Assembly (NCBI GenBank): GCA_016714445.1
Contig: JADJNF010000004.1
Span: 183,861-247,860 of the forward strand
Source of the DNA: Saprospiraceae bacterium
GTDB lineage: Bacteria > Bacteroidota > Bacteroidia > Chitinophagales > Saprospiraceae
Length of the DNA stretch: 64,000 bases
Direction of reading: 5' to 3'
The translations under genes and the position numbers were made by a program. This document shows, piece after piece, positions 17,226 through 29,896 of the stretch. Position 1 is the first letter of the stretch. Each line of letters begins with the position of its first letter. Under the pieces are notes generated by a model that worked only from the letters and a program-made list of their open reading frames with translations, did no database searches and was not told the DNA's origin.

Positions 17226-17321
17226 GATATGCCTTTTATATTACAAAATTAACAAACTCCTGAAGCAATCTGCTATTTAAAATTGATTTATTACTTAATT
17301 TTAACGCATAATTTATATTGT

Positions 17322-18047
17322 ATGAAACCATCAAACATTTTTCTTTTACTAAGTTTTGTGTTATTTACATCATCTTGCCGGTCACAAAAGCCTGTCATTT
17401 CTCAGGTCACTCCGACTGAAAGTATAAAAATGATGACACCCGAATTGATGTGGCAGTTGGGCCGGGTATCAGCAATAGGCATTACAAAAGATCAAAGGAA
17501 TGTGATTTATAATGTTTCAATACCGGATGTGGCTCAAAACAAATTTAAAAAATCTACTTATATAGTCGGGGTGGAAGGTGGAGAATCCAAAGAAATAAAC
17601 AATTTTGAAAACCTGCTGTCTGATAAAAATATCAGTCCTGACGGAAAGTACAAAATAAAATCCAGTCCGGTTAAAGTTGAAAAAGTACATGGCTTTGACT
17701 TTCATGAGGACCTTGAAAAATCTACCGCCCAGATATATACACAACTGGACTACAGACATTGGGATACCTGGAATGATGGCACTTATAATCATGTATTTTT
17801 TGGTCCAGCAACAGTCGCCGATTCTTCTTACAGAGATATCATGCCAGATGAAGCCTTTGATTGCCCACAAAAACCATTTGGCGGAGATGAAGATTTTATC
17901 TGGAGCCCGGATAGTAAAAGCATATTGTATGTCAGCAAAAAACACAAAGGAACTGCCGCAGCCCAAAGTACAAATACTGATATATATCAATACAATCTGA
18001 GTAATGGGAAAACCAAAAAATCTGACAGAAGACAATACAGGTTATGA
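17322..18047 (+). CDS. S9-family serine peptidase, N-terminal (beta-propeller) fragment; frame lost near 18010
   Basis: Lipoprotein signal LLSFVLFTSSC. Continues in the +1 frame into ORF 18004-19266. The frame break is in an A6 run (accaaaaaatct). Confidence 0.6.
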   Translation: MKPSNIFLLLSFVLFTSSCRSQKPVISQVTPTESIKMMTPELMWQLGRVSAIGITKDQRNVIYNVSIPDVAQNKFKKSTYIVGVEGGESKEINNFENLLSDKNISPDGKYKIKSSPVKVEKVHGFDFHEDLEKSTAQIYTQLDYRHWDTWNDGTYNHVFFGPATVADSSYRDIMPDEAFDCPQKPFGGDEDFIWSPDSKSILYVSKKHKGTAAAQSTNTDIYQYNLSNGKTKKSDRRQYRL

Positions 18048-19266
18048 TACCAATCCCACGTATTCAGTTAATGGTAATCTGGCATATCTCAGTATGAAAA
18101 CCGATGGATATGAAGCTGATAAAAATGATATAAAAGTCATATCCGATGGAGTGACATATAATTTAACAGGTGATTGGGACGAAACTGTTTTAAGTTATAT
18201 GTGGGCAAATGATGGCAAATCCATATACTTTACCGCTGCTAAAGATGGAACAATCCAGCTTTTTGAAGTAAATTTCCCTGGGTTTTCAGGCAAAAAATCA
18301 ACAGTAACACAAATCACCAAAGGTGACTGGGACATCAATGTCATAGTCGGACAATCCGGTGACCACCTGGTTTTGACGAGAGTAAACATGAACAGGGCTG
18401 CTGAATTATATACTTTTCATACCAAAACAAAAGCCTGGAAACAGATTACTGATGTCAATAAATCCATTTATAACACGGTAGGTAAAAGCAGAACCGAACG
18501 TAGATTTGTAACCACATCTGACAATAAACAAATGTTGGTGTGGGTAGTTTATCCTCCTGATTTTGACCCGAATAAAAAATATCCTGCTTTACTGTATTGT
18601 CAGGGTGGACCACAATCTGCACTTACCCAATTTTACTCTTACAGGTGGAATCTGCACCTTATGGCCAGCCAGGGATATATCGTAGTAGCACCAAACAGAC
18701 GAGGAATGCCTGGTCACGGAGTGGAATGGAATCACCAGATCAGCAAAGATTGGGGCGGACAAAATATTCGAGATTATCTCTCAGCCATTGATGATGTATC
18801 TAAAGAACCGTTTGTAGACAAAACCAGGCTGGGTGCTGTAGGAGCGAGCTATGGTGGATACTCTGTTTTTTATCTGGCCGGAGTACACGAAAAAAGGTTC
18901 AAAACATTTATAGCCCACGATGGAAGTTTCAATTTATACAGCATGTATGGCTCTACAGAAGAAATGTTTTTTGTAAATTATGATTTCGGCGGACCATATT
19001 GGGATAAAAAAAATGATAAAACTTATACTGACTTCAATCCCATCCATCATGTAGCAAAATGGGACACACCAATATATATCATACAGGGTGGTAAGGATTA
19101 TCGCATTCCTGACACACAAGGTATGGAAGCCTTCAATGCTGCACAATTGAGAGGAATAAAAAGTAAATTTCTATATCTGCCGGATGAAAACCATTGGGTA
19201 ATGAAACCACAAAATAGTCTGGTATGGCAAAGGGAATTTTTTAAATGGCTGAAGGAAACGCTGTAA
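18004..19266 (+). CDS. S9-family serine peptidase, C-terminal catalytic part
   Basis: Catalytic Ser motif GASYGGYS. Acid/His region DENHWV. Acylaminoacyl/prolyl oligopeptidase-like. Confidence 0.7.
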   Translation: MGKPKNLTEDNTGYDTNPTYSVNGNLAYLSMKTDGYEADKNDIKVISDGVTYNLTGDWDETVLSYMWANDGKSIYFTAAKDGTIQLFEVNFPGFSGKKSTVTQITKGDWDINVIVGQSGDHLVLTRVNMNRAAELYTFHTKTKAWKQITDVNKSIYNTVGKSRTERRFVTTSDNKQMLVWVVYPPDFDPNKKYPALLYCQGGPQSALTQFYSYRWNLHLMASQGYIVVAPNRRGMPGHGVEWNHQISKDWGGQNIRDYLSAIDDVSKEPFVDKTRLGAVGASYGGYSVFYLAGVHEKRFKTFIAHDGSFNLYSMYGSTEEMFFVNYDFGGPYWDKKNDKTYTDFNPIHHVAKWDTPIYIIQGGKDYRIPDTQGMEAFNAAQLRGIKSKFLYLPDENHWVMKPQNSLVWQREFFKWLKETL

Positions 19267-19310: not shown

Positions 19311-20344
19311 ACCCGTTGTGCGATTAAAGCAAAGCATATTTTATTTGATTTAAAGGTTTATCATTAATATGGTTGATAGCTTGAAGTAAAGTAAAAGCAG
19401 CAATTTTACCCCATATCCTTGTGCACATTCCCAAGAATGTTTTTGCATAATTTCTTTTAATCATGAATTGGTCGGCAAGTTGAGAAAATTGAGTTTCTAT
19501 ACGTTTTCTGCTTTTGCAAAAACATAAGGATATTTGCTAAAATCGGACTGGTTTCGTCTTTTTGGTGTCTGAAGTTCTATTTTTGATGTGTGAAATAAGT
19601 CTACTTTATATTCACTTGATAGGTAGCCTTTATCTCCTAATAGAGTGCAATTATTCAAGCTGGATTGTTTTACATCATCAAGATAATGAATATCGTGTAC
19701 GCTGGCTTTGGTAATATCTACAGATTTGTAAACACCTTTTAATGAAGTGATTAGATGTAGTTTGTAACCATAGAAATAAGTTTTAGTTATAGCCGAATAG
19801 CCTTTGTCGGGGCTTGTTTCAAAATCTTCTCTCAATACGTTGCTCCTATTTGCTCTTGCAATATTACAAACTGGTAGTGGCATCGAATCAACAATAAAAA
19901 TAGTTTCTTCCTCATTTAGCTGATCAGCTAAATTCTGAGTTAGCTGATTGTAAAAGCCAATGAGATTCCTTCGACGCCTATTATAGTTAGAGCGATCGAT
20001 AAGATTGGGAAAATCAGTAGATTGGCTCTTTATTTTACCCCAGAAATAGTTTTCTGAATCAATACTCATTGCTTCAGAACACAACGACAGAGCAAGGATT
20101 TCACAATCAGACATCTTTGGCTTTTTGGGGTAGAATTTAAAATTACCTTCTTCCATTATCAAATCTTTGGCATTTTTGGTAATTAATTGAAGAAATTTAT
20201 CGAAATTTGTCTTTATGTTGTGCATATGTATTTTGTTGTTTGGTAGCTTAAAAATACAACATTTTATTGCATTGCAATGAATTATGCACAACATATTTTT
20301 ATATATATTAAATTTTAATCCCACTTTTTAATCGCACAACGGGT
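19311..20344 (-). mobile_element. IS982-family insertion sequence (1034 bp)
   Basis: 18-bp perfect terminal inverted repeats ACCCGTTGTGCGATTAAA (19311-19328) and TTTAATCGCACAACGGGT (20327-20344). Flanked by a 7-bp direct repeat TTCATTA (19304-19310 and 20345-20351). Single transposase gene inside. Confidence 0.8.
19497..20324 (-). CDS. IS982-family DDE transposase (C-terminal about 60 aa continue in another frame, 19315-19500)
   Basis: DDE region ...IFIVDSMPLPVCN...SVDITKASVHD...LLGDKGYLS. After PYVF the conserved KSRKRIETQFSQLADQFMIKRNYAKTFLGM...INHINDKPLNQ reads in the +2 frame. The frameshift is in a T5 run (gtttttgc). Confidence 0.8.
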   Translation of the reverse strand: MGLKFNIYKNMLCIIHCNAIKCCIFKLPNNKIHMHNIKTNFDKFLQLITKNAKDLIMEEGNFKFYPKKPKMSDCEILALSLCSEAMSIDSENYFWGKIKSQSTDFPNLIDRSNYNRRRRNLIGFYNQLTQNLADQLNEEETIFIVDSMPLPVCNIARANRSNVLREDFETSPDKGYSAITKTYFYGYKLHLITSLKGVYKSVDITKASVHDIHYLDDVKQSSLNNCTLLGDKGYLSSEYKVDLFHTSKIELQTPKRRNQSDFSKYPYVFAKAENV

Positions 20345-20551: not shown

Positions 20552-21136
20552 ATGAACAACAAAAATTTAATTATTCTTCTGACCTTTATGGTCACATTAT
20601 TTGCAGCTGGCTGTGCACAAAAAGAAAAGGAAACCGCTGCCGTTAACACTGAAATCACCCAGGATAGTCTCATTAAAAACGGGGAATATCTGGTAACAAT
20701 TCTGGGCTGCAATGATTGTCATTCCCCAAAACGAATGGGGGCAAATGGTCCTGAAATCATACCAGAACTGATGTTGTCCGGATATCCGTCAGACAGACCA
20801 TTAGGACAAGTTACAAAAAATGCCATCTCAGATGGATGGGCACTATTTAATGCTGACCTTACGTGTGGTATAGGACCCTGGGGAGCCACGTTTGCAGGCA
20901 ATCTCACACCGGATGAAACAGGTATTGGCAACTGGTCACTTGAGCAGTTCAAAACTGCACTCACCAAAGGTAAGTATAAAGGATTGGATGATGGCAGAAT
21001 GTTATTGCCACCCATGCCGTGGATAAATTATGTCAATATGAAGGATGCAGATGTCAAAGCGATCTATTCCTATTTGATGAGTATAAAACCAGTTAAAAAT
21101 GTAGTTCCCGCTCCGATTCCACCGGGTGAACTTTGA
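20552..21136 (+). CDS. c-type cytochrome lipoprotein
   Basis: Lipobox LFAAGC. Haem-binding CxxCH (GCNDCHS). Start taken at the internal MNNKNLIILL. Confidence 0.6.
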   Translation: MNNKNLIILLTFMVTLFAAGCAQKEKETAAVNTEITQDSLIKNGEYLVTILGCNDCHSPKRMGANGPEIIPELMLSGYPSDRPLGQVTKNAISDGWALFNADLTCGIGPWGATFAGNLTPDETGIGNWSLEQFKTALTKGKYKGLDDGRMLLPPMPWINYVNMKDADVKAIYSYLMSIKPVKNVVPAPIPPGEL

Positions 21137-21275
21137 TTTTGAGACATAATATATTGGGTTGCAATAATTTCAGTTTCAGATTATTTGAAATTTCAGTTTA
21201 TCAAAGAAACAAAATCATGGCTTTTGAAAAATAAAATTCGTCATATATAATTTTAAACAGAAAAAGAATAAAATG

Positions 21276-21310
21276 GGATACGTCTATAGCTGTATCCCAT
21301 TTTTGTTTTA
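21276..21310. terminator. Bidirectional Rho-independent terminator
   Basis: GGGATAC-N10-GTATCCC perfect 7-bp stem flanked by T-runs on both strands. Downstream of the minus-strand phosphatase gene. Confidence 0.45.
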
Positions 21311-21362
21311 AAAATTATCCTTATTTGCGATTGATGGTGGTAAAATTTAGTTGCCATCACTT

Positions 21363-21827
21363 CTAAAAATCCCCATAAAACACCTGAAAACAAGGCAATT
21401 GTAAGTCATTACGCCAAAGATCTACCACTTGATTTCTGTCGTCCAGGACCAATTCTACGAAATATTTGCCATCAATAAAGGTCTCGAATATTTCTCTTTT
21501 GATGATCGCATCCTTTCTATAATCACCTGCTTTACGCATGATTAGTTCAGTGTATGAAATATTGAGTCTGGCAAGCCATTTTTCTGTTTGTGGCTGATAG
21601 ACATCTTCTCTACCAGAAACCAAAAGGATTTTATAACCTAGCTGATAATAATTTTTGACCATGTTGACTACCGGAATATTGGGTAGATCTTGGTCGCACT
21701 TTGATGCATCGAAAGGGCTTCTTCCATTCAAGAGCGCCAAAGTACCATCCAGATCACAGATGACGGCTTTAGGTAAGGATGGGGCTTGGGTACGTATTAT
21801 ATTTTCAGGACGAACTTTAGGTCTCAT
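21363..21827 (-). CDS. Polynucleotide 3'-phosphatase, HAD family (T4 Pnk phosphatase-domain-like)
   Basis: KAVICDLDGTLALLNGRSPFDASKCDQD...LLVSGRED...LDDRNQVVDLWRN...FQVFYGDF closely parallels the T4 Pnk phosphatase domain (DxDGT nucleophile motif, C-terminal ...VASGDF). Confidence 0.75.
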   Translation of the reverse strand: MRPKVRPENIIRTQAPSLPKAVICDLDGTLALLNGRSPFDASKCDQDLPNIPVVNMVKNYYQLGYKILLVSGREDVYQPQTEKWLARLNISYTELIMRKAGDYRKDAIIKREIFETFIDGKYFVELVLDDRNQVVDLWRNDLQLPCFQVFYGDF

Positions 21828-22282
21828 TGAAAAATCAAAAGTATTTTTATATTTTCATACTGTTCAATAAATCGTTTTAAGACATTTGGTGGAATAAATT
21901 TTCCTGTTTCTTGGTGTCTCTGAATCACTCTTTGCTTCAACTCTTCGGTTTCTACTTCAAATAATTTAAATGAAATATCGGCTAGATGGTTGAACTTACT
22001 TATATATTGATTTAAAAACTCCTTTCGCGTGTGCGTGGCATCTACAACAACATTGACTTTATTATTAAGCAAAGAAATGATTACACTATCTACCATTTTA
22101 GTGAGCAAAGTTTCTTCATCTTCGCTCAAATTTTCTTGACTAAACTGCATCAAACGTAAATCATCTCTATTTACTCTAAACCAGTTTTCTTCAGTTCTTA
22201 AGTGATACTTTGCAAAAGTAGACTTACCTGAACCTGGTGGGCCTACTAGGATTAACAATTGTGGATTTTTATATTTGCTCAT
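21824..22282 (-). CDS. 5'-OH polynucleotide kinase (P-loop; T4 Pnk kinase-domain-like)
   Basis: Walker A LILVGPPGSGKSTFAKY followed by WFRVNRDDLR (T4 Pnk: GCPGSGKST...NINRDDYR). Stop overlaps the phosphatase start as ATGA. Confidence 0.7.
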   Translation of the reverse strand: MSKYKNPQLLILVGPPGSGKSTFAKYHLRTEENWFRVNRDDLRLMQFSQENLSEDEETLLTKMVDSVIISLLNNKVNVVVDATHTRKEFLNQYISKFNHLADISFKLFEVETEELKQRVIQRHQETGKFIPPNVLKRFIEQYENIKILLIFQ

Positions 22283-22329
22283 TATAATTTTTATTTTTTG
22301 AAAGAATAATTAAAATACAATACAAACGA

Positions 22330-23514
22330 TTAAAGTCGTGAATCAATGGTGGATTCTATTTTTTCTCCCATTATACGGTCATAAACCAAATTTTTTAGGT
22401 GGTAATTTTCAGAATGAATATCCTTATATTTTACCTTCAACAAAACATGATTGATTGCCCAATCATTTATAGAACATTTGATTTTTTTATCAATATTCCT
22501 TTTCTGCATGTTATATTGATAGTTGTTTATAAAATCAATGCCGTAAATCATTACTAAATATTGGTTATTTCTCACTTTAAATGCTGGTGGTAAATCTTTC
22601 AGAAATGAAATACGTGGTTTTATCACTATACCTTCTTCTTTATCTGCCGATAATTTATTAAACCATTCAGTTACCATTTTCGCTTTGGTTTCTAATTCGT
22701 CTGGAGACTCAATGTTTATCTCCAAAAACTCGTCATCACTTACTTCCCCAAAACTGAAATTATCATTTACAACGATTTCAGACCCATCATCAAACACTTT
22801 TTTCAAAACATTAAAAGGTTTGAAAGAAATATCACCGTCACTTCCAAAATGTGAAATTTGTTCGCCAAAAATGCTGATTCCTTGTTCATACTTGTCAAGA
22901 TCTAACATTTTAAAAGCTTCGATGGAGTCATATTGTCTAGTCACATGACTTGGATATTCTTTTTTTATGGCCTTTTCACTCAATACTTTTTTATCAGATA
23001 TATATTTTTGATAGGCTTCTGATGATCTTACTTTTTCTATTTTGTCATATAATTCTGATTGTTTGAGATAATCATGATGCGTCTTGTGCGAATGATGATA
23101 AGCCCAAAACTCATTATTGATCAATCCTTTGCCTAATACACTCCATGGCAACATTTCGGCCTGTATGATTACCAAGCTTAAATCTTTCCAATCAAATCTG
23201 GCATGTATGTCTGAGCAAGCCATTATTGCTTTTTCTACATCAATATGCATTACTTTATGGCCATTCCTACTTACAAAATAACTATCATTAATTTCTTTTT
23301 TTAAATATATATCACAATAGGAACCCATATATTTTTTTTGAACCACAAACTCTGTTACACCGCGATCAAAATAGTATTTTAATCCTTCGAATGGCGACTC
23401 TATTTCATTTTTGTCCCACGACTTTGGCGCAGGTGAGATCGTGGGTGAAAAGGCATTTATCTTATTCTGACAAAACCACTCTATTCTACTTTTGATATTT
23501 CTTTTTTCGTTCAT
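22330..23514 (-). CDS. Ligase-like nucleotidyltransferase (Pnkp LIG-domain-sized, about 390 aa)
   Basis: Motif I-like QKKYMGSY near the N-terminus. Motif IV/V-like EEGIVIKPR around aa 300. Overlaps the Hen1 stop by 4 bp. Confidence 0.5.
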   Translation of the reverse strand: MNEKRNIKSRIEWFCQNKINAFSPTISPAPKSWDKNEIESPFEGLKYYFDRGVTEFVVQKKYMGSYCDIYLKKEINDSYFVSRNGHKVMHIDVEKAIMACSDIHARFDWKDLSLVIIQAEMLPWSVLGKGLINNEFWAYHHSHKTHHDYLKQSELYDKIEKVRSSEAYQKYISDKKVLSEKAIKKEYPSHVTRQYDSIEAFKMLDLDKYEQGISIFGEQISHFGSDGDISFKPFNVLKKVFDDGSEIVVNDNFSFGEVSDDEFLEINIESPDELETKAKMVTEWFNKLSADKEEGIVIKPRISFLKDLPPAFKVRNNQYLVMIYGIDFINNYQYNMQKRNIDKKIKCSINDWAINHVLLKVKYKDIHSENYHLKNLVYDRIMGEKIESTIDSRL

Positions 23515-24821
23515 TTTACTTCTTTTTTAGTGATGATACAAACTTGTGTAGGCTGGACTCCATTGATATTATCCCCAATAAAATCAAAACAAATTTCCAA
23601 ATTTGGGACATCAATAACGCTGCCTGAAATTAATTGCCTAAATTCATCAGCAGTTGGTTCAAATTGATGATCGTCATGTCTTCGCTCCATTGTTTCGCTA
23701 TAATATTTATTAAAATCAGCGTTTGGAGTAGTGATAATTATCGAAGCAAATTGAAGACCCAAGGCTTGTTTAATTAGCACTGATGCATGCTCTTTTTTAT
23801 TATGTTCGATCACTTCTGACATGATTATGTTTACTTTTTCCTGATCCGGATAATGATTCAAATCTGAGTAAAAAAACAAATTATTTTCAGAGTATCTTGA
23901 CCCAATGGCCATTGCAATATCTTCAAACTGTTCATCTGTATCTACAGCGAAGTATGATTTTTTAAATCCCTTACTCATGACTTTTTTATAGTAAAGCAAT
24001 TCTCCACACCCTATATCGAGAATAGGGATATTAAAATCTAACTTATCTAAAATATAGATAATTCTTGCTTGATGAGTTGGGTACCATGTCAGTTCTGTCT
24101 TCAGACCTTGTTTAAGAAGGTATGATTCAAAAACTGGCTTTACTAGCAAAAACAACTTTTCAGACCGCACTGCCCTTTTGATAAAAAGATAAAATACGAA
24201 ATAGGGTACATTATCTAAATTAGTTAAAATTCTAGCATATTTATCGGCAAAAGACTCGTCAATGTAGGTGTAAATGCCATAATCATTTGTGATATGTGTA
24301 AACAAGGCTGTCAAACTAAGCAAATTGATTGCCTCAAAAACGGAGTTGGCTTCAATGATAAGTTTGAAATTATGACCATTTTGATGTTGTGTTTTTATTC
24401 CTTCAAAATATTTTGACAACAAAAAAGCTTCATTTCTTACCCAACTGGAATTAATGTAAAATGAAGGAATTTCTATAGTACATTTTTCTGTATCGATATT
24501 GCCAATAGTCTTATTTAACCAAGACAATTCTTTGGACAAAACTTCATTTTTAGTCTTGAGTAAATGACTAAAAAAATCCGTACAAATATCCATCACAACT
24601 AATGGGCTACAATAACTCTGAAAGTCAATTTGATTGCTTTCTTCAGGCAAATAACTGTATTTAGAATCCTGAAAAACGATATCATATTGATGAGAAGTAA
24701 CTACTTGTCCAATGACTACTCCTTTTTTAAGCGGCCTAGCATATATACCAAAGTCAGTATTGGGATTTCTATTTAGAATATCTAATAGAAATTCATTTTT
24801 ACATTTAATTTTTATTATCAT
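23511..24821 (-). CDS. hen1: Bacterial Hen1-type RNA 3'-terminal 2'-O-methyltransferase
   Basis: C-terminal SAM motif I ILDIGCGEL, acidic AVDTD, Hen1 metal-binding signature EVIEH, followed by IIITTPNADFNKYY...RHDDHQFEPTADEF (compare bacterial Hen1 ...TTPN...RHKDHRFEWT). About 250-aa N-terminal domain as in bacterial Hen1. Confidence 0.75.
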   Translation of the reverse strand: MIIKIKCKNEFLLDILNRNPNTDFGIYARPLKKGVVIGQVVTSHQYDIVFQDSKYSYLPEESNQIDFQSYCSPLVVMDICTDFFSHLLKTKNEVLSKELSWLNKTIGNIDTEKCTIEIPSFYINSSWVRNEAFLLSKYFEGIKTQHQNGHNFKLIIEANSVFEAINLLSLTALFTHITNDYGIYTYIDESFADKYARILTNLDNVPYFVFYLFIKRAVRSEKLFLLVKPVFESYLLKQGLKTELTWYPTHQARIIYILDKLDFNIPILDIGCGELLYYKKVMSKGFKKSYFAVDTDEQFEDIAMAIGSRYSENNLFFYSDLNHYPDQEKVNIIMSEVIEHNKKEHASVLIKQALGLQFASIIITTPNADFNKYYSETMERRHDDHQFEPTADEFRQLISGSVIDVPNLEICFDFIGDNINGVQPTQVCIITKKEVK

Positions 24822-24832
24822 TTTACATTCAT

Positions 24833-25867
24833 TTAACTTTCTAAATCATTCCTAAATGGCCGCTCATATTTCGGCTTCAACATTTTCCAAATGATAGCAT
24901 CGTACGGTCTTTTTTCGTACATCTTAAATAATAGAGCAGGATGTTGACACGCCTGAAAATAAATAGCGGTTGCCTTACGGTCTTCTAGTTCTTTGTATTC
25001 GGCTTTTGCTTCAGCTTCTATTTTTCGATAGGCTTCCCAAAATTCATCAATCGTCGTACGTAGCCAATTATAAAACTCATCAGGTACTTTTTCCAGCAAT
25101 TCGTCCATAGATTGGTTATCTCGTAGATGCTCCCAAATGGTTTTGGAAGAGACTTGTGTGATGATTCTATGAAGCCGTACATACTCGGCAAACTTGATTT
25201 TAATTCTGTACCCATTATCAAATCGTATGATAAAACCTTCTTTATCTTCTATTTGCAACTGACGGATAGCCTGCAGATCATTCAATCCGTCATATCTTTT
25301 GACCACAGGAAAACCTATGTCTGTCAAAGGAGTTTCTATTCCCGATGCTATATCTACGATAGCCAATAATACCAATTCTTCTTTATGACCATAATCTATG
25401 ACGATACGATTTTCAGGGTAAATAATCTCAAAAAGATAAGTTTTACTTTTGTCCAGTTTGTCGATACAGTTGGCATATTTTCTATGCAAAAGTTCATTGG
25501 CTTTGATGGCCTGTTCGCTCATAAATGACCCACGAGTAGCGATGTACGGGCGATCATTCCACCAATACAAAATACCCAAGGAGCCATCCATTTTGTCGTA
25601 CACTTCAAATGGCAGCGACGGAATCTGCTGATCAGGCACTTCACCATAATTAAAAAACTTAGTAAACGGTCTTGCCACGATCTCATACTGTTCATCCAAT
25701 ATCAATCCTCTGCAAAGCATCGTCACTTCATTCCACATATATTCATACTGAGCTTTGGCAGTATAGTTGTAGATATATAGCGATCGCTCCGGATGTTTTG
25801 TCATTCGCACATACCCGGAAGAAATCATTTCTTCTAATGCATCGATGGTGAATGGAAGGTTTGTCAT
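24833..25867 (-). CDS. ATP-dependent RNA ligase, T4 Rnl1-like
   Basis: Nucleotidyltransferase motif I YDKMDGSLGILYW (T4 Rnl1 K-E-D-G-S-L). Motif IV/V EGFIIRFDNGYRIKIK. First gene of the operon. Confidence 0.6.
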   Translation of the reverse strand: MTNLPFTIDALEEMISSGYVRMTKHPERSLYIYNYTAKAQYEYMWNEVTMLCRGLILDEQYEIVARPFTKFFNYGEVPDQQIPSLPFEVYDKMDGSLGILYWWNDRPYIATRGSFMSEQAIKANELLHRKYANCIDKLDKSKTYLFEIIYPENRIVIDYGHKEELVLLAIVDIASGIETPLTDIGFPVVKRYDGLNDLQAIRQLQIEDKEGFIIRFDNGYRIKIKFAEYVRLHRIITQVSSKTIWEHLRDNQSMDELLEKVPDEFYNWLRTTIDEFWEAYRKIEAEAKAEYKELEDRKATAIYFQACQHPALLFKMYEKRPYDAIIWKMLKPKYERPFRNDLES

Positions 25868-25887
25868 ATCGTTTGTTCATTTTAATA

Positions 25888-25945
25888 ACGATGCAAAGGT
25901 AAAAGTGGTGTACGCAATCTTTTTGCGTAGGAGAAATTATTTTTA
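25888..25945 (-). promoter_or_regulatory. Putative Bacteroidetes-type promoter with overlapping palindromic operator, upstream of the RNA-repair operon
   Basis: On the minus strand, TACCTTTG (TAnnTTTG -7 box) lies 26 nt upstream of the Rnl1-like ATG. A 7-5-7 palindrome TACGCAA-N5-TTGCGTA sits between the -33 and -7 regions. The same ~57-bp element recurs at 33057-33113. Confidence 0.45.
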
Positions 25946-26107
25946 TTTTTCTCGCAGAACTTGTATCGCTACCACGATATTTTCTAGATTTCGCAGATGA
26001 AAGGGGAAATATTAAACCTTTCACCAACTCGCCATCAGTCGAAGTAATAATTAACTTTTGAAACTTATTTATTTTCCTATTTGTTTACTTAGAAAATCAA
26101 AAATAAA

Positions 26108-26389
26108 ATGCAAATCGTTCTAGAAAGTCCATATGATGAATATATAGCCAAACTTATAGAGAATGGTAATTTTCAAAATGCAGAACAAGTCGTTCAATTT
26201 GCTTTGAATGAGAAATTTCAGTTTGCGCAATGGGATCATCAAACTATTTCATTGATAGAAGAAGGATTAAAAGATGTAGAAGAAGGAAGAGTTATAGAAA
26301 TCACCGAAGACTACATAAGAGATGTTATGGATGGTGCGAGAAAAAAATACCTAGATAATGATCCTATACCATCCCATATAAAGCCTTGA
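26108..26389 (+). CDS. parD: ParD-family (ribbon-helix-helix) antitoxin
   Basis: ENGNFQNAEQVVQFAL and IEEGLKDVEEGRVIE resemble ParD. Immediately followed by a ParE-like frame. Confidence 0.6.
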   Translation: MQIVLESPYDEYIAKLIENGNFQNAEQVVQFALNEKFQFAQWDHQTISLIEEGLKDVEEGRVIEITEDYIRDVMDGARKKYLDNDPIPSHIKP

Positions 26390-26688
26390 AAAAGTACTTG
26401 CTAAAGATTACACCAAAAGCTAATGAAGATATTAAAGATATCTTGCATTATACTTTGTCAGAATATGGAGAATTGCAAATGCAAAAGTATGCTGATAAAA
26501 TATGAAATTCATTTCAATCTATCAAGTCCCAACCTTTTTTAGGTAAACAAGCTTTGATAAAGGGTAAAGGACATTTCATACATTTTGTAGGTAAACATAC
26601 AATTTTTTATGACGTAAACTTAGATGAATCATCTATAACAATTATCCGAATTTTACACCAAAAAATGAATTTTATCAAGCACCTATAG
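26386..26688 (+). pseudogene. parE: ParE/RelE-family toxin with in-frame TGA stop (26503-26505) and TTG start
   Basis: Reads LKKYLLKITPKANEDIKDILHYTLSEYGELQMQKYADKI*NSFQSIKSQPFLGKQALIKGKGHFIHFVGKHTIFYDVNLDESSITIIRILHQKMNFIKHL. ParE-like C-terminus (...IFYDV..I.IIRILHQ). TTG start overlaps the ParD stop as TTGA. Confidence 0.6.
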
Positions 26689-26808
26689 CTATCACTTATA
26701 CAACTCCCTCCTAATCTCCACCAATAATCGCTCCACCAATTTTTGATCCGGAGCCTCTGGAAGTAGCCAATTACTTAAATTTTGATTAATCTCTTTTTAA
26801 AAGTTTTT

Positions 26809-29277
26809 TTATAAATTAGGGATAGAAATTGTTTGAAGCAAATTACCTTTTATGACAGTGATATTATTCTTGTCTTTAAAGAAAATGCCATTATATTCTG
26901 GTTCTAAAATGTAAGTTTTTCTCTTTATATCATACAGCCCTAACTTTCTATCGATTTCTACTAGTAAATAATCACGATGGATCTCATAAATATCATCAAA
27001 TAAAGCTTCAGTAAATTGTAAATTCGGACGATGAACACCATATTTTGTACCAATTTTATAGATTACAACACCATAATCGTCATGATGAATGATATTTTTA
27101 AAAAAGAATGCTGTATCCACGCCATTTTTAAATATCTCATTTTCATTGCTTGGAATAAAGTAGAACTTACCATTTCTTTTAAAGAGGTATTTCTGATGAC
27201 TACTTTCATCCGAAATCCAATCATTTTCTGCATTTAAAGCAAGATCTCCGTTTAAATTAATACCACCAAGCTTACCATTTTTTTCAACCAGAATAAAGGA
27301 AGAAGCTTTTTTAATAAAATTGTAACCAGAAATCATTTTTGTAATTTGTAAATTAGTCCCATTATTGTAATTTGGTTTTATAATTGAAATTGTGTCTTTA
27401 GTTATCCCAATACCAGCAAACAATGTATCATACTTATAATCTGTAAGTTGTATTCCTAATTCATTAAAAATGGCATATTTACCTTGTTCATTTTTCACTC
27501 CTAATAGCCGATGGTCAAATTCATAACAATAATCATAACTAAAATTTATTATTGTATTTCCATCAAATGACTCCATCCCATACTTTCCATTTTTTTTAAG
27601 AATAATTGATTTAAGATGGATAAGTTCTTTAAAATACTTAATTGGAATTAATTTAAAAGGAATAAGACTTATCTCATAATGATCCAGACTCCCTTTTCTG
27701 TTTTGAAGATCAAAATATGTAATATTAGAATTTGACCATGGTAATCTAAAGCCAGGATATGAACTCTTTTTACCCGATTTTGTATCAATTAAATGAACAA
27801 ACCTATCCCTAAATGTTCTTTCTTCAATCAAATATATTCCATCAAAAGATGTTTTTCTAATGTATTCATAAATCGGAGGAATTATAATTTTTTTGTTTTT
27901 TGAAATAACACCGTATTTTCCACCAATTTGAATAATAGAAGTTTCTGATAGATTATTTAAGTTGATGCTTTTTTTCATTTCATCATTAACGTGCAGAGTA
28001 GATAAATCAACCGCAACTCCGTTAATGTCGTAGGCATGCATAGACCCGCTATTTTGAAAACATATTATGATGTCATTATGATTTTCTGATATTTTTAAAG
28101 ATGCACGGAATGGATTGTCACAGGGACATTTTCTTAAAAGTGTTCCAGAATTATCAAAAATTGATATTTCACGCCCAGATTTTATAAAGTACCTATGTTT
28201 ATCTTTTGATAGGCTATTTCCAAAAATTGAAATTAACTCATGTTTTGGCTCAAAAAGATCAGGACCAAATAAAAAAGATATTAAGCCTGATTTTTTATTC
28301 TTGTAAATTTTAACATAGTGAGGATTATTATCATAAGAAATAGAATCTACTATAAGATCTTGAACTTTTAATTTTTCCTTTAAATCCAAATTGGTAAAAA
28401 AATTTTCGTAACCATTCAAAAGAGAAATATACTTATTACCGACGACACCTATCAAATCTCTATCATCATTAAGTATAAATGAATCTAAAAGAATCGGAAA
28501 AGATTGTAGTCTCTCACTATATATTTTAAACTTTTTGGATATTTTATCCTTTTTCAAAGTAATTTTATTGACTTTTATTATTGGGTATTCAGCCAATTCT
28601 CCAGTTTTAATGTTTAATTCAATTTTAAGTTGGTTGTTGGCAATTGATGAATAGCTTGCAAATAATTTATCTTCTTCAAAATAAATAAAATTCCACCAGT
28701 TATTAAATTTTAAATTACCATTAAGATCAACCACGTTGAATTGATTATTTTCATTCGAAACTCTAATTAGGGAATCATTAATGAAACTAGCAGTTTTATA
28801 AGGAAGAATGCTTTTTCTATTTGCATCAACCTTAATTAAAGAAGGGTATTCATCAAAGTTTTTTAGGATAACATAATCATTTTTTACTTCTATTTCGTTA
28901 AAACCAAAAACATTATATTTTGAATTCTTATTAATGTGCAACAACTTAGCTTTACTATTATTTATTTGCAATTGGTATAAAGAATCATCAATACTATTTA
29001 CTCTGTCATAATTAAGATTTACTACCCATTTGTTTTTTGTCAAATTAAAAATACCATATTTATTTTGATGATGAACGTGTTTGTAATCTTCATCATTAAT
29101 ATTAAAACTTCTGTAGGTACTAATAACATTTACATTGCTATAATCTCTAAAATCAATATTTTCGGACTTAAGGACCTTAAAGTATGGTGATTTCATACTC
29201 GTTTCTTGAGCATAAATGTTCATTACCATAAAACTCCAGATTACAAAAAAAACTATAGTTCTAAATAAAAATCGCAT
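26809..29277 (-). CDS. WG/KWG-repeat-containing secreted protein
   Basis: Signal peptide. Multiple KNGKYG / GKYGVISKN WG-like repeats. Confidence 0.6.
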   Translation of the reverse strand: MRFLFRTIVFFVIWSFMVMNIYAQETSMKSPYFKVLKSENIDFRDYSNVNVISTYRSFNINDEDYKHVHHQNKYGIFNLTKNKWVVNLNYDRVNSIDDSLYQLQINNSKAKLLHINKNSKYNVFGFNEIEVKNDYVILKNFDEYPSLIKVDANRKSILPYKTASFINDSLIRVSNENNQFNVVDLNGNLKFNNWWNFIYFEEDKLFASYSSIANNQLKIELNIKTGELAEYPIIKVNKITLKKDKISKKFKIYSERLQSFPILLDSFILNDDRDLIGVVGNKYISLLNGYENFFTNLDLKEKLKVQDLIVDSISYDNNPHYVKIYKNKKSGLISFLFGPDLFEPKHELISIFGNSLSKDKHRYFIKSGREISIFDNSGTLLRKCPCDNPFRASLKISENHNDIIICFQNSGSMHAYDINGVAVDLSTLHVNDEMKKSINLNNLSETSIIQIGGKYGVISKNKKIIIPPIYEYIRKTSFDGIYLIEERTFRDRFVHLIDTKSGKKSSYPGFRLPWSNSNITYFDLQNRKGSLDHYEISLIPFKLIPIKYFKELIHLKSIILKKNGKYGMESFDGNTIINFSYDYCYEFDHRLLGVKNEQGKYAIFNELGIQLTDYKYDTLFAGIGITKDTISIIKPNYNNGTNLQITKMISGYNFIKKASSFILVEKNGKLGGINLNGDLALNAENDWISDESSHQKYLFKRNGKFYFIPSNENEIFKNGVDTAFFFKNIIHHDDYGVVIYKIGTKYGVHRPNLQFTEALFDDIYEIHRDYLLVEIDRKLGLYDIKRKTYILEPEYNGIFFKDKNNITVIKGNLLQTISIPNL

Positions 29278-29624
29278 TATCCTTTTTTGATATTTAAAAG
29301 ATTGTTCACATAGTCAAAACAAAGATTTCTTTAGTAACCCAATAAATTTTGACTATTGACAAACCAAATTTTATACCGACTTCACATTAATTAGTGCTAC
29401 AAAGGTAGTTGTTAAAAAACAGTCATTTGAAATTTATGTCATTTTTAATCATCATGGAATAATGCAATAGTTAAAATCCAAACAACATTTCATATTGTGC
29501 GCTTAAGCAATTATCTTTGTAATTGCAAAACAGATATTTTAACCAGCTCGAATTTTACAAAATGGAATACAAAATAATCAAATAGACATCACAACACAAA
29601 GCATATTGCAACAAACTTCACGAA

Positions 29625-29849
29625 TTGGTCATAGATCCATTGACTAGAGATAGTGACGAAATGGAAGTATTATCAAAGGGAACCATTTCAAAAATGCTCA
29701 TCTATAACAAAGGTCTATCAAAAGAAACCATCAGGATTCTGGCAACTCATTTTAAGCTCAATCAGGAAATATTTAATCAGCCTTACAAGCTTGAAAATGA
29801 TATAAATCGAAAAATAAAAAATGCAGCAGTGATGAAAACAGAAATGTAA
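29625..29849 (+). CDS. Small HTH protein, HigA/XRE-antitoxin-like C-terminal region (possibly truncated)
   Basis: ISKMLIYNKGLSKETIRILATHFKLNQEIF resembles HigA-family helices 3-5. TTG start. No partner toxin seen. Confidence 0.3.
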   Translation: MVIDPLTRDSDEMEVLSKGTISKMLIYNKGLSKETIRILATHFKLNQEIFNQPYKLENDINRKIKNAAVMKTEM

Positions 29850-29896
29850 AATACTGTATGTATTATTTCCAATAAAGAGATGAAAAAATGGCCAAA

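Follow-up and report, generated by a model that had tools for sequence, protein, structure and literature searches.

The question raised by the locus described here is whether it encodes a new kind of RNA repair machine. The window analysed, a stretch of 64,000 nucleotides (nt) of a Saprospiraceae contig, holds an operon of five co-oriented open reading frames (ORFs) on the minus strand, which according to the ORF list of the window encode 344, 436, 394, 152 and 154 amino acids (aa). A sequence-only reading had described these genes as an RNA end-healing and sealing cassette, made up of an Rnl1-like ligase, a Hen1 methyltransferase, a second ligase-like protein, a T4-type polynucleotide kinase (Pnk) and a HAD phosphatase, and had proposed that the combination represents a distinct architecture. 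The analysis presented here makes it highly probable that the locus is a Saprospiraceae operon of the known Pnkp1-Rnl-Hen1 RNA repair system with a phage-type RNA ligase 1 gene in front, and that the split between kinase and phosphatase is a 1-nt deletion in a run of six A residues (A6). The main value of this result is corrective: on this reading there is neither a new Hen1 architecture nor a split Pnk.

The repair proteins and their published counterparts

The genes themselves are as they had been described. In operon order, genes 1 and 2 are 11 nt apart, genes 2 and 3 overlap by 4 nt (ATGA), 47 nt separate genes 3 and 4, and the last two again overlap by 4 nt (ATGA), in agreement with the 4-bp overlaps and gaps of less than 50 bp reported for them, and the motifs KMDGSL, EGFIIR, EVIEH, TTPN...RHDDHQF, KKYMGS and EGIVIK are all present. 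Profile searches upheld the family assigned to each of the five ORFs, with matches to RNA_lig_T4_1 (3e-19), Hen1_N (2e-58, with a methyltransferase tail), PNKP_ligase (3e-24), the AAA_33 kinase family (6e-19) and HAD_PNKP (7e-51).

What did not stand is the novelty of the architecture. Hen1 together with a T4-type (HAD) Pnk and a stand-alone ligase is the composition of Pnkp1-Rnl-Hen1, a 'hybrid' system in which Hen1 is joined by a T4 Pnkp homologue and by a stand-alone protein homologous to the ligase domain of Pnkp (PMC4411300). The heterohexamer from Capnocytophaga gingivalis, in which Pnkp1 dimerises and links two rings, has been reconstituted and crystallised (Wang, Selvadurai and Huang, Nat Commun 2015; PDB 4XRP/4XRU; PMC4411300). 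Repair of colicin-cleaved tRNA requires all three proteins, and the sealed junction is 2'-O-methylated and withstands re-cleavage; in 2015 the system was known from about ten mostly oral Capnocytophaga species (PMC4411300). Hen1 of the window matches C. gingivalis Hen1 (4xrp_C) with an E-value of 1.5e-142 over residues 1-433, and Rnl matches CgiRnl (4xrp_B) at 1e-145, residues 1-394 to 1-394, without a gap. The kinase and phosphatase ORFs match two parts of the same chain, the 312-aa CgiPnkp1 (4xrp_A), at residues 9-150 (4e-41) and 171-312 (4e-55), respectively. Since the window proteins match the 4XRP/4XRU chains, we regard the combination as the published system and not as a new architecture.

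Catalytic residues are intact in all four proteins, and deviations from the consensus shared by at least 95% of homologues amount to one non-motif position each in Rnl and in the Rnl1-like ligase. Hen1 shows no deviation from the consensus of 66 homologues, among which the S-adenosylmethionine motif (D269, G271, C272, G273) and the metal ligands (E336, E339, H340, H385) are at least 97% conserved. Rnl, which matches the Pfam family PNKP_ligase (PF16542) and has a 100% identical counterpart among NCBI proteins, in a Saprospiraceae metagenome-assembled genome (MAG), keeps motifs III-V, and its motif I lysine K61 (in KYMGS), E120, E293-G295, K299, K313 and R315 are conserved in 80 homologues. In Pnkp1 the P-loop (G14-T22), R39, D40 and R43, the DxDxT motif (D177-T181), S223-R225, K257 and D258, and D281 and D282 are all conserved. 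The interface between Pnkp1 and Rnl can also be traced: on the Rnl side the residues named in PMC4411300 (K4, E369, N375, D379) are all present in the window, and on the kinase side K25, R29, E32 and K106 of the window stand at the positions of R29, R33, D36 and K110 of C. gingivalis Pnkp1. Every sequence-level feature of Pnkp1-Rnl-Hen1 was thus found apart from a single-chain Pnkp1, which is broken by a one-base indel in the assembly. Two points on which the sequence-only reading depended, the assignment of the methyltransferase to Hen1 (given by the Hen1_N match) and the conservation of the ligase lysines K92 and K61, were confirmed, and homology to the C. gingivalis system supports the view that the operon is a putative cassette for RNA end healing and sealing with immunisation through 2'-O-methylation by Hen1.

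PADLOC defence-system models gave no match for the four repair proteins or for two RlaP proteins encoded beside the operon in related genomes. The only phage-type members of the cassette are the Rnl1-like ligase and Pnkp1. A phage origin of the entire cassette was considered and rejected, as Rnl is without relatives in 2.9 million viral contigs, and Hen1 and Rnl match no PHROG family.

What this analysis shows is homology, conserved catalytic residues, and how the genes are ordered here and across genomes; for the enzymatic steps, and for what the Rnl1-like ligase does, the C. gingivalis homologues and phage T4 serve as models. A ribotoxin would cut a tRNA or rRNA and leave 2',3'-cyclic-phosphate and 5'-OH ends. 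The HAD domain of Pnkp1 (DLDGT) would take off the 2',3' phosphate and its P-loop domain would phosphorylate the 5'-OH, and Hen1 would methylate the 2'-OH of the 3'-terminal nucleotide. Rnl, activated by the N-terminal domain of Hen1, would seal the break via a lysyl-AMP on K61, and the resulting 2'-O-methyl junction would no longer be cleavable by the same toxin. The Rnl1-like ligase, with K92 as its predicted nucleophile, would most likely offer a second, Hen1-independent sealing route for ends healed by Pnkp1, like T4 Pnkp with Rnl1, and would leave the junction unmodified or act on another class of substrates. In effect, the operon would enclose a bacterial pair that methylates and seals (Hen1-Rnl) within a pair of phage type that heals and seals (Rnl1 ... 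Pnkp).

Gene order was compared in 80 species-representative genomes encoding Rnl, taken from at least 90 matches that are nearly all from Bacteroidota, and was counted at the 68 loci with enough upstream sequence, which supplies the survey of other genomes that the sequence-only reading had called for. The Rnl family comprises 630 protein clusters. The hen1 gene lies directly upstream of rnl at 58 of the 68 loci, and the ten without an adjacent hen1 are nine from Capnocytophaga, C. gingivalis among them, and one from Dysgonomonas. Only in part of Capnocytophaga is hen1 unlinked from rnl-pnkp1 (L024, L025, L028-L033, L038, L040, L042); in other members of the genus (L034, L037, L041, L043, L053) and in almost all other genera the three genes are contiguous. 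Because so few loci (10/68) lack an adjacent hen1, the arrangement with a distant hen1 is the exception. The Rnl1-like gene stands directly upstream of hen1 at 24 of the 68 loci, including those of Saprospiraceae, many Flavobacterium and other Bacteroidota, in constant order and mostly with gaps below about 100 nt (11 nt in the window). It occurs within 8 kb at 29/68 loci, and RlaP genes do so at 27/68. The sole non-Bacteroidota label among the 80 Rnl loci belongs to a 12-kb contig of a MAG assigned to Limnohabitans sp. (L045), which is probably a binning contaminant since its proteins are typical of Bacteroidota.

Compared with the description of 2015, Pnkp1-Rnl-Hen1 is therefore widespread in Bacteroidota, where it usually forms a single hen1-rnl-pnkp1 operon, and about a third of the operons start with an Rnl1-family ligase, and RlaP nucleotidyltransferases and a WYL regulator are often encoded close by. 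A literature search (Rnl1, Hen1, RlaP, Bacteroidetes, Flavobacterium) returned no paper on the four-gene form; Burroughs and Aravind 2016 lay outside this search and may cover the neighbourhood.

The Rnl1-family ligase at the head of the operon

Judged by sequence and by a structural model, the first gene of the operon encodes a genuine member of the Rnl1 ligase family. It matches Pfam PF09511 (RNA_lig_T4_1) at 70 bits, against a gathering cut-off of 28, PHROG 562 (the T4 gp63 family) over its full length at 5e-72, and T4 Rnl1 (PDB 2c5u) at 2e-13. Across 33 cluster-linked homologues, conservation reaches at least 97% at R53, K70, F72, K92, D94, G95, E147, E210, G211, K223 and K225, of which K92 (in KMDGS) is the lysine of motif I. 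In the alignment these residues are the counterparts, in the same order, of the essential residues R54, K75, F77, K99, D101, G102, E159, E227, G228, K240 and K242 of T4 Rnl1. The AlphaFold2 model has a predicted local distance difference test score of 90.5 and a helical C-terminus at residues 227-329. Its best PDB match in Foldseek is T4 Rnl1 (E-value 2.8e-19, TM-score 0.59-0.61, 360-370 aligned columns), followed by fungal Trl1 LIG, and the high root-mean-square deviation points to a different orientation of the domains. The protein scores 75 bits against NCBIfam TIGR02308, the T4 RnlA equivalog, and does not reach the cut-off of 242; by this measure it is a family-level relative of T4 RnlA and not its equivalog. 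The family has at least 7,989 database proteins, carries the NCBI name 'T4 RnlA family RNA ligase', and has at least 562 matches in viral contigs at 40-54% identity. Neither Hen1 nor Rnl was found near the gene in the viral contigs, and a Pnkp adjoins it in 5 of 80.

Of the architecture that had been called distinct, the extra Rnl1-type ligase is the part that stands, being real and recurrent at the head of the hen1 operons, and the remainder is the known system. The Rnl1-like ligase is a genuine, recurrent neighbour that goes beyond the published three-protein description. Its meaning is a separate matter. We propose tentatively, as a reading about which we are slightly more doubtful than confident, that in Saprospiraceae, many Flavobacterium and Taibaiella the Pnkp1-Rnl-Hen1 system gained a fourth component, an RNA ligase 1 of phage type. 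A single healer would then feed two sealing routes, of which that of Hen1 and Rnl would immunise the junction, and that of Rnl1 would leave it unmodified or act on other substrates, such as anticodon loops, whose decoding would suffer from 2'-O-methylation; which RNA is repaired would be tuned by the ligase's variable C-terminal domain.

It is possible, although on balance doubtful, that the ligase instead belongs to a separate T4-like module of Rnl1, Pnkp and RlaP that is merely clustered with the other genes in an RNA repair island. Modules of this kind do exist, as an Rnl1-like gene, a T4-type Pnkp and RlaP stand together without Hen1 or Rnl in L087 and L088 (7001-10036), and the Pnkp there falls in a clade separate from the Rnl-associated Pnkp1 (45% identity, against 54-58%). 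In Taibaiella chishuiensis (L083, 90-10113; also L020) what looks like an RNA repair island consists of eleven genes in one orientation, in the order RNase_T exonuclease, an unassigned ORF, RlaP, RlaP, Rnl1-like, NTP_transf_2, an unassigned ORF, a second T4-type Pnkp paralogue, Hen1, Rnl and Pnkp1. The second paralogue, kept beside the Rnl1-like gene, belongs to the Rnl1-associated clade of Pnkp, whose members are 65% identical among themselves and 41-45% identical to Pnkp1 (the two Taibaiella copies, at 53%, are an exception); the Rnl-associated Pnkp1 proteins of the window, Taibaiella and C. gingivalis are 54-58% identical to one another. A separate module would also fit the position of the Rnl1-like gene several kb downstream in L061 and L078, and the abundance of the family in phages that lack Hen1 and Rnl.

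The same alternative draws on the close relatives of the window. Four of these (L001-L004; a pair of NCBI MAGs and one contig each from ENA and JGI) were retrieved through a 99%-identical Rnl and share about 97% nt identity with the window. Against L001 (3648-4682) the DNA of the Rnl1-like gene differs by 8.4% and that of hen1 and rnl by 1.1-1.2%, which suggests that the Rnl1-like gene has its own history of recombination. The ligase has 23 amino-acid changes, 13 of them within residues 269-312 of the C-terminal domain; recombination, or diversifying selection on a domain that recognises the substrate, may lie behind this clustering.

Evidence on the other side comes from the clusters of the window type. 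The order is constant, the gaps are short and the gene lies directly upstream of hen1 in 24/68 genomes, and the only Pnkp present is the Rnl-associated Pnkp1. For this reason, the Rnl1-like ligase must rely on Pnkp1, or on nothing, for the healing of its ends. Pairwise divergence of the Rnl1-like ligase correlates with that of Hen1, Rnl and Pnkp1 (r = 0.97 overall, and 0.78-0.83 when Flavobacterium-Flavobacterium pairs are left out).

Several observations count against our interpretation of the locus. The Rnl1-like gene is missing from about 60% of Pnkp1-Rnl-Hen1 loci, is accompanied by its own Pnkp paralogue in Taibaiella and forms an independent module elsewhere, so that it may be a co-located separate system and not a partner. 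Plain vertical inheritance would give the same distance correlations. As to the split of Pnkp1, the frameshift could be real, given the ParE nonsense substitution, the loss of a pair of RlaP genes and the insertion sequence (IS) found nearby.

If the second ligase does work with Pnkp1, the operon would be a natural example of a single repair machine able to give RNA junctions either a "clean" or an "immunised" form, and such a two-ligase operon could help to identify substrates in vivo.

The interrupted reading frame of Pnkp1

Kinase and phosphatase had been read as two translationally coupled ORFs, and this part of the sequence-only reading was not confirmed. All four close relatives have the gene order of the window with one 306-aa Pnkp1 ORF; the sequences are 94-99% identical across the junction, at which A6 is found in 4/4 relatives and A5 in the window. 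When one A is added, the window encodes a 306-aa Pnkp1 that is 98.7% identical to the single ORF of the relatives and matches PHROG 505 (polynucleotide kinase) at 3e-82. The linker of the restored protein reads ENIKNTFDFSMRPKV, with an FDF motif that is invariant in 78 homologues; in the window as assembled, the FDF codons precede the phosphatase ATG and are out of frame, and the last six residues of the kinase ORF form an unrelated tail. Pnkp1 follows rnl as a single frame in 77 of the 80 species genomes, with a native length of about 300 aa, and the three exceptions are two genes truncated at contig ends and one on a long-read 'tig' contig where hen1, too, has a frameshift. We conclude that the split arises from the loss of one base of a homopolymer and is particular to this assembly. 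A slip of tRNA-Lys at AUA-AAA-AUA, which would give the full-length protein by programmed -1 frameshifting, was rejected as a designed feature, as the relatives simply have A6 in frame; no conserved slippery heptamer and no downstream structure were found at the junction.

Single-base indels in A/T runs of 5-6 are what errors in a long-read consensus usually look like. A5 is most simply explained by an assembly error, and a very recent real mutation is the alternative, to be kept in mind because the same stretch has the ParE nonsense substitution, the loss of RlaP and the IS insertion, none of which is a homopolymer artefact. A second homopolymer indel is located at 18020 (A6 in the window, A5 in the relative), within the approximately 10 kb alignable to the relative. 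The Peptidase_S9 (prolyl-oligopeptidase) gene at 17283-19266 (+) is split into ORFs of 254 and 420 aa in the window and is a single 647-aa gene in L001.

A real frameshift in a strain whose locus is decaying, with the RNA repair island turning into pseudogenes, is unlikely, although the comparison with L001 offers several signs of such a process. The nonsense substitution in ParE falls in the same 10 kb, two RlaP genes are gone except for a divergent remnant, an IS with a DDE transposase has been inserted, and the peptidase S9 gene is frameshifted. The repair genes themselves tell a different story, as the Rnl1-like ligase, Hen1 and Rnl are all intact, the four repair proteins have no substitutions at conserved motif positions, and synonymous changes predominate (in Pnkp1, 19 synonymous and 4 non-synonymous codon differences from L001, with conserved residues unaltered). 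Moreover, each of the two indels that break a gene is a single base, in an A/T run of the length at which long-read errors are expected.

A genuine two-subunit Pnkp1, with kinase and HAD phosphatase made separately through ATGA coupling in a five-protein architecture, is very improbable: each catalytic residue is kept in the two halves, the break falls in the inter-domain linker with an in-frame ATG immediately after it, and T4 Pnkp's kinase and phosphatase domains were solved as separate chains (1ly1, 5uj0) and can each fold alone, but the arrangement occurs in this assembly only, against one ORF in the four relatives and in 77/80 species genomes, differs from theirs by a single homopolymer base, leaves the FDF codons out of frame and six nonsense residues at the end of the kinase ORF, and lies near a housekeeping gene, that of peptidase S9, also broken by a homopolymer indel. 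Crystallography shows contacts between the dimer modules of kinase and phosphatase only via the N-terminus and the linker (PMC4411300); with the linker cut, the phosphatase would therefore be attached to the complex less firmly, and a real split would probably weaken it.

Surroundings of the operon and comparison with known systems

Table 1. Coordinates of the repair genes and of associated features in the window
Feature	Position	Strand	Description
Rnl1-family (T4 RnlA / gp63-type) ATP-dependent RNA ligase	24833..25867	-	344 aa, operon gene 1
Hen1	23511..24821	-	436 aa; N-terminal ligase-activating domain and C-terminal metal-dependent RNA 3'-terminal ribose 2'-O-methyltransferase domain
Rnl, stand-alone ligase	22330..23514	-	394 aa
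Pnkp1 (T4-type 5'-OH kinase and HAD 2',3'-phosphatase)	21363..22282	-	read as two ORFs, 1-nt deletion
Pnkp1 kinase half	22282-21824	-	152-aa ORF
Pnkp1 phosphatase half	21827-21363	-	154-aa ORF
Pnkp1 frameshift site	21844..21848	-	A5 in the window, A6 in relatives
Bacteroidota-type -7 promoter box TACCTTTG	25894..25901	-	motif match
13-bp hairpin with flanking A and T runs	21270..21303	.	likely bidirectional terminator
ParD antitoxin	26108-26389	+	divergent from the repair operon; neighbour outside the repair system
ParE toxin pseudogene	26386-26688	+	stop at 26503-26505; neighbour outside the repair system

The -7 box ends (3') 26 nt upstream of the ATG of the Rnl1-like gene. As its motif has 114 matches in the window against 91 expected, the box is weak evidence for a promoter, and a scan for sigma-70 promoters gave sites no commoner than in shuffled sequence. 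The hairpin, located between the convergent Pnkp1 and cytochrome c genes, is the sole terminator-like site in 21000-26500. Box and hairpin, as motif matches alone, are compatible with a single transcript (Table 1).

Of the ParDE module that had been noted next door, ParD is whole, with a weak match to TIGR02606 (5e-4; 20 bits against a cut-off of 46), and ParE is stopped at codon 40, where L001 has a tryptophan (W40); the intact ParE of L001 matches PF05016 at 5e-16. The pair is a remnant, an orphan antitoxin beside a dead toxin, and no functional link to the repair operon was seen. ParE belongs to a family of gyrase-poison toxins. ParDE was rejected as the cognate ribotoxin on the grounds of this family membership, of the truncation of ParE in the window and of its absence from most other loci.

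Two tandem RlaP (PF10127) genes lie upstream of ParDE and the Rnl1-like gene in relatives (L001, 1013-2822). What is left of them in the window is a 64-aa remnant at 26695-26886 (-), 47% identical to the C-terminus of RlaP_b and overlapping the end of an 822-aa ORF. RlaP has been reported to extend damaged RNA 3' ends by 1-2 nucleotides.

The 822-aa ORF, a WG_beta_rep repeat protein, and a 380-aa protein without Pfam match occupy positions 26809-31039 (-), where GC content is 0.27 against about 0.35 elsewhere. With patchy identity of about 82% to relatives, this is probably a variable or acquired segment. Downstream of the operon, an IS of about 1 kb, inserted relative to L001 (19311-20343), with a DDE transposase ORF at 19497-20324 (PF13612/PF01609), lies between the peptidase and cytochrome c genes.

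On three unrelated metagenomic contigs (L086, 2223-11487; L005, 547-8127; L089, 2074-10169) a divergently transcribed gene for a WYL/WCX-domain regulator is found upstream of the Rnl1-like cluster. In one metagenomic relative the order is the WYL regulator and, across the divergent junction, Band_7, RlaP, RlaP, Rnl1-like, Hen1, Rnl and Pnkp1, and a Band_7 gene stands beside the regulator in L086 and L005. The regulator is a candidate damage-sensing regulator of the operon; its gene is absent from the window.

In comparison with known systems, the locus shares with canonical Pnkp-Hen1 (Clostridium thermocellum, Anabaena variabilis) the logic of healing, 2'-O-methylating and sealing with a Hen1-activated ligase, and the Hen1 N-terminal and methyltransferase domains and the ligase fold are homologous. 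The canonical system differs in carrying kinase, calcineurin-type metallophosphoesterase and ligase in one chain, whereas the window has a HAD phosphatase on a T4-type Pnkp and the ligase as a separate gene; profile searches found no metallophosphoesterase domain in the repair proteins of the window. Scores against the equivalogs of canonical Pnkp and Hen1 (TIGR04075, 68 bits against a cut-off of 750; TIGR04074, 51 against 340) are far below the cut-offs, and therefore the locus is not a classical Pnkp-Hen1 pair. RlaP-associated RNA ligase operons (Burroughs and Aravind 2016; Carruthers, Fatma and Huang, 2025 preprint) are resembled by L001 and L086, which carry two RlaP genes just upstream; the window differs in having lost the pair down to its 64-aa remnant.

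With the T4 pathway of Pnkp and Rnl1 the operon shares its first and last genes, which belong to the families of gp63/RnlA (PHROG 562) and PseT (PHROG 505) and have structure or sequence matches to 2c5u/5tt6 (ligase) and 1ltq (Pnkp). In contrast to those of the phage, the window genes are cellular, the ligase is about 20% identical to T4 Rnl1, and the pair flanks a Hen1-Rnl pair that is missing from phages (0 viral matches for Rnl).

The closest comparison is with Pnkp1-Rnl-Hen1 of C. gingivalis, which has the same three proteins with the same domain make-up, aligned over their full length at approximately 53-62% identity with few gaps or none, and the same catalytic residues and Pnkp1-Rnl salt-bridge residues. 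The window differs in that its Pnkp1 is frameshifted in the assembly, in that hen1, rnl and pnkp1 form one operon, whereas hen1 is distant from rnl-pnkp1 in C. gingivalis (PMC4411300), and in the Rnl1-family ligase gene that precedes hen1.

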